NCBI GenBank assembly: GCA_046050355.1
Contig: JBJOPW010000001.1
Coordinates: 3,858-67,857, forward strand
Length of the DNA: 64,000 bases
Direction of reading: 5' to 3'
Source: Candidatus Parcubacteria bacterium
GTDB lineage: Bacteria; Patescibacteriota; Minisyncoccia; Phycocordibacterales; UBA918
Shown here one piece after another: positions 28,063-30,912 of this stretch (positions within the stretch are counted from its first letter, which is position 1; each line of letters starts with the position of its first letter). Both the position numbers and the translations under genes were made by a program. Under the pieces are notes generated by a model. It was not told the origin of the DNA. It made no database searches and saw only the letters and a list, made by a program, of their open reading frames with translations.

Positions 28063-30912
28063 CTAGACCACGATAATGTTGAGTATTTTGCCAGGGATGT
28101 AGATAACTTTGCTAATAGTTCCCCCACTCACGTACTTGCTAATGTTGTGGTCTCCACGGGCGAGTTCTAGTGCCAGACTTTCCGCTGCGTCTTTGGAAAC
28201 AGTGATGTTACCGCGGAGCTTACCATTGACTTGTACCCCAATCACCACCTCAGTATCTTCGGCGAGACTGTCGTCCCCTACCGGATAGGTTTCCAGGTGG
28301 ATACTCGTACTGTGGCCGAGTTCCTGCCAGATCTCTTCGGTGAGGTGTGGAGCAAATGGTGCCAAAAGTCGCACGAATAGTTCGTATGATTCTTTTGTTA
28401 ATCCAACTTTTTCGGCGACGTTCACAAAAATCATCATGGCACTGATAGCGGTGTTAAACTTAAAATCAGCGATATCATTCCCTACTTTGATAATGGTCTT
28501 GTGTAACTGGCGGGTCACTTCAGCACTTTCCTCCCCACGTACATGTTCTGATAGTCCGTACACCCGTTCGAGGAAGCGGCGGATACCGGCGATACCACCC
28601 ATATCCCACGGATAATTGCTCCCTTCATACGGTCCCATGAAGGCAAGATACATTTTGACGGTATCTGCCCCCACCAATTTCACTTGTTCGTCGGGGTCAA
28701 TCACGTTCCCTTTACTCTTACTCATCTTGTTGCCGTCAGGGCCAAGGATAAGACCGCGGTTGATACGACGGCGGTATGGCTCACTTTCGGTCACAAGCCC
28801 AAGGTCAAAGAGCGCCTTCTGCCAGAAGCGTGAATAGAGGAGGTGCATGGTGGTGTGTTCAGCCCCACCAAAGTAGATATCAATGGGCATCCAGTCTTTT
28901 TGCTTTTCAAGGCTCGCGAGAGCATTACCGTTTTGGTTGTCGAGATAGCGGAGGAAGTACCAGGAAGAGTCCACGAAGGTGTCCATGGTCTCAACTTCAG
29001 GTGTCCAGCCTTTGCCAAATATTTCTTCGGTTCGTTTTTTCAGCACCTCACTTTTCGCGAGCGGTGGCTCACCGGTTGGCGTGAAGTCGACATCCTCGGG
29101 GAGCGTCCAGGGGAGATGTTCTTCGGGAACGATATGGGCCTCGCCCTCTGGACTGTAGACAATCGGGATTGGGACACCCCAGTAGCGCTGCCGGCCGATA
29201 GACCAGTCGCGGAGACGATAGGTCGAGGTCATGCGACCACGGACTTTTTCAACGATTTTTTCCTTGGCCTCCTCGCTGTCCATGCCGTCAAATTCAGCCG
29301 AATTACAGAGATTACCTTTGCCGGTAAACGGTATATTTGTATCAAGTTGTGCCAAGGCGTATTTTGCTTCATCAAGAGTGAGTTTTTCAAAGAGTTCTGA
29401 TTTAGTTAGCCAAACTGGTTCTTGTTTTTCCATTTCTTCGACTGGAATTTCATGCTGAATGTCAGACGTAAGTTCAAGTAATACCCGTCGGCTCGTAAGC
29501 GACCGATTAACTTTTTTACCAGGATGATAAAAATGTGCCTCAGTTTCTTCTGTTAAGAAACGGACGAATTTTGTTTCGTAGCCCATTTCTTCGCGAGTCT
29601 CACGAATAGCCGCTTCTTCATAGGACTCACCGTCTTCCATTCCGCCAAAAACAAAATCAAAGTTATTGAACTCGTGACTATGCTGCACCAAATATTTGTC
29701 AGTCTTGGGATCGTAGACTATGGCCCCAACTGCGGTGCGAGGTACAGGGTTTGGTAATGGCTCACCAAAAACCTTTCGAACTACCTGCCGTACTGGCAAA
29801 CCAAATTTCTTCGCAAACTCACCATCGCGTTCATCATGGGCTGGTACGGCCATAATGGCGCCGGTACCATAGCCGCCAAGGACGTAGTCCGCGACAAAGA
29901 CCGGAATCACTTCCCCACTAGCTGGATTCGTAGCTGTTACTCCTTCGAGCTTGACCCCAGTCTTTTCTTTGGTGGCATCGAGACGGTCTTGTTCATCCTT
30001 TTGCTTGGCCTTGGCTACATAGGCATCGACTTCAGCCAAGTTCGAGGTCTTGCCTCGAACTTCCTCCGTACTGAGAAGTGGGTGTTCAGGAGCGAGTACA
30101 AGATACGTGGCGCCATAGAGTGTGTCTGGACGCGTCGTAAACACTGTCACCTCACCTAGGACATCCGATGTCCTAGGTGAGGTGTTTTCTGAGTTTGCGT
30201 GAAGGGTGAAGTTGATTTCGGCACCGCGGGAGCGGCCAATCCACTGGCGCTGAGCTTCTTTGATATGTTCGGGCCAATCAAGAGCAGCGAGGTCGTCAGT
30301 GAGTCGGTCAGCGTACTTGGTGATTCTGAGCATCCACTGTGGCATCTCGCGCTTCTCAATCATGTCACCCGAACGCTCACAGGTACCATCGGCGAGCACC
30401 TGTTCGTTGGCTATCACCGTATTACACCCCGGACACCAGTTCACCACTCCTTTGCCGCGGTAGGCAATGCCGTTATTAAAAAATTGGGTGAACATCCACT
30501 GCGTCCATTTGTAGTAGCTCTCGTCCGTACTTGAGGCGGTCTTGTCCCAGGCGAACATGTTGCCCATACTGGCGAGCTGTTCACGCATGTACGCCATGTT
30601 GTCGTAGGTCCAGGTCTTAGGGTTGAGGCCGCGCTTGATAGCGGCGTTCTCAGCTGGTAGACCAAAAGCGTCAAAACCCATTGGGAAGAGTACTTGTTTG
30701 CCTTGCATACAGCAAAAGCGAGCGTAGATATCGGGTACGGCAAAGGCGTACCAGTGACCGATATGGAGGTTCCCAGACGGGTATGGCCACTCGACGAGAA
30801 TGTATTCTTTGTCCTTGGCAGTGTCGCGCGCACCGACGTCGTAGAGTTTATCGGCTTGCCACTGGTGTTGCCACTTTTTTTCGATGACACCACTATCAAA
30901 TTTTTTGTGCAT
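28063..30912 (-). CDS. leuS: leucine--tRNA ligase with an inserted NUDIX hydrolase domain
   Basis: HIGH-type motif [8 protein letters not shown]; KMSKS; editing-domain [13 protein letters not shown]. A roughly 130-aa insertion after GLPVRQVV carries a perfect Nudix box [23 protein letters not shown]. At 949 aa it is about 100 aa longer than typical LeuRS. Confidence 0.9.
   Translation of the reverse strand: [949 protein letters not shown]
29355..29760 (-). other. NUDIX hydrolase domain embedded in LeuS (approximate DNA span)
   Basis: Gx5Ex7REUxEExGU is fully satisfied; the segment is flanked by LeuRS-alignable sequence on both sides. Confidence 0.7.

Follow-up and report, generated by a model that had tools for sequence, protein, structure and literature searches.

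Why would a leucyl-tRNA synthetase (LeuRS) carry a further hydrolase domain inside its own proofreading domain? The question is raised by a 64,000-nucleotide stretch of Candidatus Parcubacteria DNA (contig JBJOPW010000001.1; the whole stretch is called the window below), where the leuS gene encodes a bacterial-type LeuRS of 949 residues interrupted by a 138-residue insert of the Nudix family. We found this insert to be nested within the CP1 editing domain, with metal-binding glutamates that are nearly invariant, and the same architecture recurs among the relatives of this bacterium, some of which add other hydrolases around the same hinge. We give about an even chance to the explanation that the module is an active house-cleaning hydrolase of nucleotides or dinucleotides, fused to a working LeuRS.

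A Nudix domain nested within the CP1 editing domain

The host gene, the insert and the two parts of the editing domain lie in the window as follows.

28063..30912, minus strand: leuS, bacterial-type LeuRS of 949 residues, carrier of the insert (single reading frame, TIGR00396, alignment with the Thermus thermophilus LeuRS, AlphaFold and Foldseek)
29767..30249, minus strand: CP1 editing domain, N-terminal part, residues 222-382 (PF13603 profile positions 1-144)
29320..29733, minus strand: insert of 138 residues, 394-531, Nudix module with its linkers (break in the phmmer alignment, in-silico deletion, insert-free relatives)
29365..29742, minus strand: Pfam NUDIX domain PF00293, residues 391-516 (Pfam profile, model pLDDT, Foldseek)
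29578..29646, minus strand: Nudix box, residues 423-445, with the metal-binding glutamates E438, E441 and E442 (motif coordinates, conservation among modules)
29410..29529, minus strand: segment 3' of the box, residues 462-501, with Y462 (position +17), K466, N469, R470, E493 and W501 (conservation among modules)
29233..29319, minus strand: CP1 editing domain, C-terminal part, residues 532-560, resuming past the insert (aligned from T. thermophilus residue 380; part of PF13603 once the insert is removed)

The leuS open reading frame (ORF) has no internal stop, and its product reaches 878.2 bits over its whole length against the TIGR00396 model (leuS_bact), for an equivalog cutoff of 548.4. The closest relative in the PDB is the T. 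thermophilus LeuRS (E 2.6e-201). When the two proteins are aligned with phmmer (1h3n), residues 3-393 of the query correspond to residues 2-376 of the chain and residues 532-726 to residues 380-581; the 138 residues in between stand in place of a three-residue loop (T. thermophilus residues 377-379). The segment is no normal LeuRS linker. It matches PF00293 at 58.6 bits (gathering threshold 21.1), with an E-value of 8.4e-16. Removing residues 394-531 in silico turns the match to PF13603 into a single contiguous one, covering profile positions 1-184 of 185, and from this we conclude that the Nudix domain is nested within the CP1 editing domain. CP1 is itself an insertion in the Rossmann fold, and a Nudix domain inside CP1 makes a two-level nesting. 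The insert segment is absent from close relatives of 809-832 residues.

An initial annotation of the window, made from the sequence alone, had proposed a LeuRS with an internal Nudix hydrolase domain, and both profiles and the predicted fold bear it out. It had placed an insert of roughly 130 residues after the editing domain and before a conserved YRLRDW block: the insert is there, at 138 residues, but its place has to be corrected, as its deletion restores PF13603 and it thus lies inside CP1. The Nudix box, described at the time as perfect, agrees with the consensus GX5EX7REUXEEXGU at all fixed positions (G423, E429, R437, E438, E441, E442 and G444); the two U positions hold T439 and Y445 instead of I, L or V, and we would call the box near-perfect. 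The interval originally singled out, 29355..29760 (minus strand), reads in frame as residues 385-519 (PLPNPVPRT...AKYA).

An AlphaFold model of the full-length LeuRS, built from an alignment of 79 sequences, has a mean pLDDT of 87.1 and a pTM of 0.76. The insert is modelled at a pLDDT of 92-96 with a Nudix-like secondary structure, and the KMSKS loop (residues 720-736) is the sole long segment of low confidence. With the full-length model, Foldseek returned LeuRS structures only. The Nudix domain modelled by itself (pLDDT 91.9) retrieved Nudix structures at probability 1.0, many of them with a TM of 0.6-0.8. The module is thus predicted to be an independently folding unit with the alpha/beta/alpha Nudix fold.

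Conservation and base composition of the module

Conservation was measured on 324 distinct modules aligned to the module hidden Markov model. The metal-binding glutamates of the box are nearly fixed (E438 100%, E441 98%, E442 99%), as is its first glycine (99%). Chance similarity would have left the catalytic glutamates unconserved in orthologues, the opposite of the 98-100% observed here, and the catalytic metal ligands of the module are under strong purifying selection. Outside the box, the most constant residues are W501 (98%), K466 (88%), E493 (88%), N469 (83%) and R470 (66%), and 84% of modules have an aromatic residue 17 positions past the box, where Y462 lies (Tyr 59%, Phe 25%).

Two other box residues, E429 (81%, Gln in 13%) and R437 (83%, Ala in 9%), change together in a subtype that we call type C. 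Its box, GGIExGQTPEEAALAEIxEEAAL, jointly replaces the first Glu by Gln, the Arg by Ala and the last Gly by Ala, and retains the three metal-binding glutamates. Type C modules are carried by P0042, P0052, P0055, P0057, P0058, P0068-P0070, P0073, P0078-P0080, P0083, P0087 and P0101, and the first module of P0003 and of P0012 is also of this type.

Was the module acquired recently? In the window, the GC content at third codon positions (GC3) is 0.35 in the insert and 0.57 in the rest of leuS, with a dip to 0.25-0.30 over residues 441-540. The same holds for 44 of 46 relatives, whose module GC3 is below that of the LeuRS body (mean difference 0.09); the gap in the window lies at the large end, and module GC3 follows that of the host locus from 0.22 to 0.80. 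With a dip so general and a composition that tracks the host, a recent horizontal origin is unsupported; the pattern fits a long-resident, less constrained segment.

Distribution among relatives

The identical protein is present in NCBI and JGI, from a Candidatus Parcubacteria metagenome-assembled genome (MAG). Among the closest LeuRS clusters (118 anchored, 65-100% identity), 103 have one module at the same site as in the window, nine have two in tandem and six have none, which gives a module-bearing share of 112/118. We also scanned GTDB, with one genome per species, using as query a protein segment that spans the insert junction. This yielded 510 relatives, and our locus counts are drawn from the best 80 of these 510; about 47 of these 80 loci carry a Nudix module. 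The MAGs concerned are labelled Parcubacteria, Paceibacterota, Kaiser-, Nomura- or Adlerbacteria, and a closed 859-kb Kaiserbacteria chromosome (CP066682.1, locus L064) is among the module-bearing loci. The same insertion is therefore found in related genomes in hundreds of independent assemblies, which argues strongly against a chimera.

For five loci (L038, L046, L069, L073 and L076), the source MAGs bear the labels Gammaproteobacteria, Azotimanducaceae, Aquifex or Pseudomonadales, and a Nudix module is present in L038 only. These labels likely reflect mis-binning or mislabelling, because the contigs are short and their LeuRS are Patescibacteria-like. Many Nudix-bearing LeuRS are named 'class I tRNA ligase family protein' or 'hypothetical protein' by NCBI, and insert-free relatives are named 'leucine--tRNA ligase'; the inserts probably explain this vague naming.

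Is the module confined to LeuRS? With the insert as query, an exhaustive HMMER search of 1.84 billion cluster representatives found 403 matches at E<=1e-3, and we examined the hosts of the best 150 of these 403 (representatives at 50% identity). LeuRS, whole or as fragments, account for about 95 of the 150, the remainder being short Nudix-only proteins or fragments, and no host protein other than LeuRS was found among them. The module forms a clade of its own, in which all fused members are LeuRS. A word-index homologue search with the insert alone produced a single match, the standalone protein P0121, whose genomic neighbours, PolA and TsaE, give no functional clue. In one Paceibacterota MAG, a standalone ORF of the same Nudix clade (L019:1016-1504, minus strand) is located about 1.5 kb upstream of a Nudix-bearing leuS; it is the sole such neighbour among the best 80 loci.

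Three insertion sites and other nested hydrolases

Modules of the same Nudix clade occupy three sites in the LeuRS of relatives: site 1 lies at the junction of the N-terminal catalytic half with CP1, site 2, that of the window, within the C-terminal part of CP1, and site 3, which is rare, in the C-terminal catalytic half. The group with insertions in the C-terminal half comprises P0129, P0175 and P0219, and also P0136, P0197, P0209, P0238, P0239 and P0247. Several relatives have extra inserts of 100-200 residues in this half of the enzyme.

Two tandem modules are found at one site in LeuRS of 1095-1114 residues (P0003, P0004, P0012, P0074, P0076, P0078, P0093, P0094 and P0101), and three modules distributed over two sites in P0122 and P0123. 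Identity is 28-47% between modules residing in the same protein and reaches 50-65% with modules from other LeuRS, including modules at another site. Multi-copy LeuRS hence hold differentiated Nudix subtypes rather than fresh duplicates, and simple tandem duplication is unsupported as the source of these forms.

Nudix is not the only family involved. A Ham1p_like domain (PF01725, an ITPase/RdgB-type NTP pyrophosphatase) sits at site 1 in three loci (L022:626-4033, L062:2390-5422 and L079:2378-5629), together with a Nudix module in the LeuRS of L022. A small alpha/beta serine hydrolase (PF06821/PF00561/PF12697) sits at site 1 in about 17 of the best 80 loci, and in proteins P0073, P0172 and P0185. 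The loci in question are L007, L009, L011, L013, L014, L017, L018, L025, L027 and L028, then L033, L034, L039, L041, L043, L044, L055, L064 (the closed Kaiserbacteria chromosome) and L070. The alpha/beta hydrolase usually accompanies a Nudix module; L070 has the hydrolase without Nudix. Across the Paceibacteria/Parcubacteria lineage, the CP1 hinge region thus accommodates Nudix modules (one to three), a Ham1/ITPase domain and/or an alpha/beta serine hydrolase.

Is the host a working LeuRS?

The signatures of the synthetic site are located as follows.

30754..30765, minus strand: HIGH signature of the synthetic site, residues 50-53 (invariant in the LeuRS alignment)
28714..28728, minus strand: KMSKS signature, residues 729-733 (motif position; invariant or nearly so in the LeuRS alignment)

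The editing domain (PF13603, 193.6 bits) has its usual motifs: the T-rich TTRPDT at residues 259-264, GTGAIM at residues 349-354 and HDERD at residues 359-363. Over 223 full-length LeuRS, proteins with zero, one or two Nudix modules keep HIGH, KMSKS, HDxRD, the GTG loop and the T-rich motif at equal rates, and there is no second LeuRS within the window. To judge from these residues, the protein looks functional, with all the parts needed for charging and proofreading tRNA-Leu, and would be the working LeuRS of the organism.

One domain is missing. The leucine-specific domain found before KMSKS in the T. thermophilus and E. coli enzymes is absent, query residues 726 and 730 corresponding to T. 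thermophilus residues 581 and 638; the gap falls in the region around residues 705-733 (28714..28800, minus strand). This absence is clade-wide, with a spacing of 30-40 residues from HLLYSRF to KMSKS. The leucine-specific domain is not universal in bacterial LeuRS, and its absence is no bar to membership.

Other genes in the window

23965..24423, minus strand: standalone Nudix gene of 152 residues, outside the fusion (PF00293, 64.3 bits)

This second Nudix gene, also reported in the initial annotation, is real. Its best NCBIfam matches are weak and MutT-like, and it resembles the LeuRS insert in the Nudix box alone; with only the box in common, a recent duplication of this gene into leuS is rejected. 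On the 3' side of leuS, the GTG start of the longest ORF (26925..28127, minus strand, 400 residues) overlaps the final 65 nucleotides of leuS, and its true start is probably an internal ATG.

What does the module hydrolyse?

None of the specificities with a curated model fits the insert. The closest model is that of the RNA pyrophosphohydrolase RppH (PRK00714 models), with a best score of 28.2 bits against cutoffs of 116-259. The 8-oxo-dGTPase MutT is rejected with 18.5 bits against 97.9 for TIGR00586 and 21.7 against 148 for PRK10776, and ADP-ribose pyrophosphatase with 14.2 against 248 for PRK10729 and 19.7 against 79.55 for TIGR00052; the latter family also has an X-loop proline some 15-16 residues past the box, where the insert has H460 and F461 (+15/+16). 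For NADH pyrophosphatase, PRK00241 gives 21.6 bits against 158 and the SQPWPFPxS motif is absent from residues 446-480. NudE, NudI, YtkD and the other curated Nudix subfamilies are all far below cutoff. A link with anti-phage defence was likewise set aside, the insert having just a weak generic Nudix match to a candidate PADLOC family.

Structural neighbours offer a broader view. The best fold match of the module is 2AZW, an uncharacterised MutT/nudix protein of E. faecalis (E 2.9e-10), and further top neighbours include M. smegmatis MutT1 and the M. tuberculosis ApnA-ase Rv2985 (ApnA, dinucleoside polyphosphates). The Aquifex Ap4A hydrolase 3I7U (TM 0.81 normalised to the target) and the T. 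thermophilus Ap6A hydrolase Ndx1 (1VC8, 25% identity) are also among the best matches. RppH, ADP-ribose pyrophosphatase, NUDT15 and others score just slightly weaker. Comparing the module profile with PDB sequences gave a mixed list like that of Foldseek, with the mRNA-decapping effector AvrM14 and RppH among the neighbours. The structures 3I7U, 1VC8, 1F3Y and 9CXX are near the top of the ranking, mixed with decapping, MutT-type and uncharacterised Nudix proteins of comparable score.

A survey of the Nudix clan reported that a conserved tyrosine in the X-loop, about 17 residues past the Nudix box, correlates with ApnA hydrolases (PMC5389931). In the insert, Y462 sits at this +17 position, though a single residue is a weak diagnostic. 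The idea raised at the outset, of Ap4A or dinucleotide clearance, is plausible, with Ap4A and Ap6A hydrolases among the best neighbours and a tyrosine at +17; yet no subfamily model is reached and the fold ranking does not discriminate. The multiple copies, the three sites and the Ham1 and alpha/beta inserts point to nucleotide house-cleaning generally, not to Ap4A specifically.

Our preferred explanation, to which we give about an even chance, is that the module is an active house-cleaning hydrolase. Nested in a variable surface loop of CP1 and, from its conserved residues, presumably catalytically competent, it would hydrolyse free nucleotide polyphosphates, the likeliest substrates being ApnA or non-canonical NTPs. 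Aminoacyl-tRNA synthetases produce ApnA from aminoacyl-adenylate, and we infer an activity on free nucleotides because of this chemistry, because Ham1/ITPase, a family annotated as non-canonical NTP pyrophosphatases, occupies an adjacent site in relatives, because the closest structures include ApnA hydrolases and MutT-type NTPases, and because the ApnA-correlated tyrosine of the X-loop (PMC5389931) is present. The fusion would place the house-cleaning activity in a 1:1 ratio with, and physically beside, an essential ATP-consuming enzyme. The module may be kinetically or regulatorily coupled to LeuRS chemistry or, alternatively, the two activities may simply be co-expressed.

Several observations weigh against this explanation. 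No curated NCBIfam Nudix subfamily model comes near its cutoff for the insert. The Foldseek and profile rankings are flat (E 1e-10 to 1e-7, TM 0.6-0.7 across many specificities), and the substrate call is weak because of this flatness. The box is degenerate (E429Q, R437A, G444A) in about 10% of modules, and close relatives without any module exist, so that the module is dispensable. Finally, the alpha/beta serine hydrolases are not nucleotide enzymes and fit poorly in an account limited to nucleotides.

Could the module act on RNA instead, at the end of tRNA-Leu or on another RNA? It could remove a 5' pyrophosphate in the manner of RppH, remove NAD or another cap, or clear phosphate-type lesions from the CCA end, with the editing domain positioning it. 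RNA pyrophosphohydrolase models are the best, if weak, NCBIfam matches, AvrM14 and RppH appear among the profile and fold neighbours, each of the three insertion sites falls in CP1, beside it or in the catalytic core, where the acceptor stem is held, and the module clade was found fused to LeuRS only. We nevertheless regard an RNA substrate as unlikely, though by no means negligible: the RppH models score 20-28 bits, far under their cutoffs, a free-NTP enzyme (Ham1/ITPase) is found at the neighbouring site in relatives, standalone relatives of the module exist, and no specific RNA-binding feature was seen in the module.

It is distinctly unlikely, in our opinion, that the module serves chiefly for ligand binding or structure, either as a nucleotide sensor that modulates the swing of CP1 between aminoacylation and editing, or as a tRNA- or protein-binding surface that offsets the absent leucine-specific domain. 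Such a role would be consistent with the degenerate boxes (E->Q, R->A, G->A) of about a tenth of the modules, with the several differentiated copies per protein, with the position of the module near the CP1 hinge and with the clade-wide lack of the leucine-specific domain, and non-enzymatic Nudix proteins are known (PMC5389931). Against it, all three metal-binding glutamates stay at 98-100% conservation, the degenerate type included. In Nudix proteins without enzymatic activity, these residues have usually been lost. Furthermore, insert-free relatives also lack the leucine-specific domain, and the module is therefore no required compensation.

A third possibility, which we find highly doubtful, is that the module extends the quality control or self-protection of LeuRS by destroying mis-activated aminoacyl-adenylates, or inhibitors that mimic adenylates, near the synthetic and editing sites, with analogous guard roles for the Ham1 and alpha/beta hydrolase inserts found in relatives. 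Nested hydrolases from three families recur at the proofreading-domain hinge, LeuRS is the sole host found, and an esterase-type alpha/beta hydrolase beside a domain that hydrolyses aminoacyl esters is suggestive. However, the canonical CP1 editing residues are fully kept, leaving no apparent proofreading gap, and aminoacyl-adenylates are acyl-phosphates rather than pyrophosphates, hence atypical substrates for a Nudix enzyme.

An assembly or sequencing chimera, or a chance Nudix likeness of an ordinary LeuRS linker, can be dismissed: nothing was found in its favour, the only oddity being the lower GC3 of the insert, which is general among relatives, and it is refuted by a continuous ORF, a significant Pfam match, a confident predicted Nudix fold and, above all, the recurrence of the architecture in hundreds of independent assemblies (NCBI, JGI, ENA, Logan).

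A bolder reading takes the nested hydrolases around the editing domain of the Paceibacteria LeuRS together, as a hitherto unrecognised modular layer of quality control or repair that would be mechanistically coupled to the synthetase, and thus as something beyond separate house-cleaning enzymes fused to it by chance. The Nudix module, for instance, could destroy mis-activated adenylates or toxins mimicking them, repair chemically modified tRNA acceptor ends presented by CP1, or gate the swing of CP1 by nucleotide sensing. We give it a small chance only.

Significance of the nested modules

Few enzymes have been studied as thoroughly as aminoacyl-tRNA synthetases. The CP1 domain of LeuRS is a textbook case of an inserted proofreading domain, and here it is host to further catalytic domains, in a large, poorly understood lineage with minimal genomes. 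If the module is active, as its conservation argues, it would constitute a natural covalent link between tRNA charging and the hydrolysis of the nucleotide pool or of dinucleotide alarmones, and the link, discussed for a long time, between the side products of synthetases (ApnA) and their degradation could be tested directly in a single polypeptide. With three sites, as many as three differentiated Nudix copies, Ham1 and a serine hydrolase, the diversity of the modules amounts to a natural experiment in domain insertion, and it may throw light on how ultra-small cells save on gene regulation.

Comparison with known systems

LeuRS with nested accessory hydrolases are already public as sequences, and their architecture is undescribed in the literature that we searched: full-text searches turned up no paper that places a Nudix domain, a Ham1 domain or an alpha/beta hydrolase within LeuRS, and the Nudix-clan survey (PMC5389931) makes no mention of tRNA synthetases or ligases. 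How does the window LeuRS compare, then, with the systems that are known?

As a synthetase, it shares with the solved bacterial LeuRS (T. thermophilus 1H3N, 2BYT and 2BTE; E. coli 4AQ7 and 4ARC) the HIGH and KMSKS signatures, the T-rich, GTG and Asp elements of CP1, and the anticodon-binding and C-terminal domains, at 33-36% identity and a Foldseek TM of 0.74-0.82. It departs from the T. thermophilus enzyme by the 138-residue Nudix insert in CP1 and by the lack of the leucine-specific domain (about residues 582-637 in T. thermophilus). As a Nudix protein, the module shares with free-standing family members (2AZW, 3I7U, 1VC8, MutT1/Rv2985) a minimal fold of about 130 residues, the canonical box, a downstream glutamate and the tyrosine of the X-loop. 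These matches reach E-values of 3e-10 to 5e-9 and a target-normalised TM of up to 0.81, at only 16-25% identity and, unlike them, the module is nested in a domain of another enzyme.

Two other fusions, which we know here by the names of their models, come close to this arrangement. NCBIfam NF040702, an isoleucine--tRNA ligase with an N-acetyltransferase domain, is a class Ia synthetase with an extra catalytic domain, but both the synthetase and the added enzyme, a GNAT acetyltransferase, are different. The NMN adenylyltransferase/Nudix proteins (NadM-Nudix, PRK05379 models) pair a Nudix domain with a nucleotidyltransferase. The partner yields an adenylylated product, which again puts a Nudix domain beside an ATP-consuming adenylyl transfer. 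This is, however, an end-to-end fusion with a Nudix domain of ADP-ribose type that has only the box in common with the insert, and the PRK05379 models weakly matched the standalone Nudix protein of the window, not the insert.

The last comparison concerns the editing domain itself. In a 2026 survey of domain insertions published in Protein Sci, PF13603 is a classic inserted module of tRNA-synthetase hosts, recorded as insertion-only with zero cases as a host (PMC13114784). In the LeuRS described here, PF13603 itself hosts a Nudix domain, and stands as an exception to that pattern.

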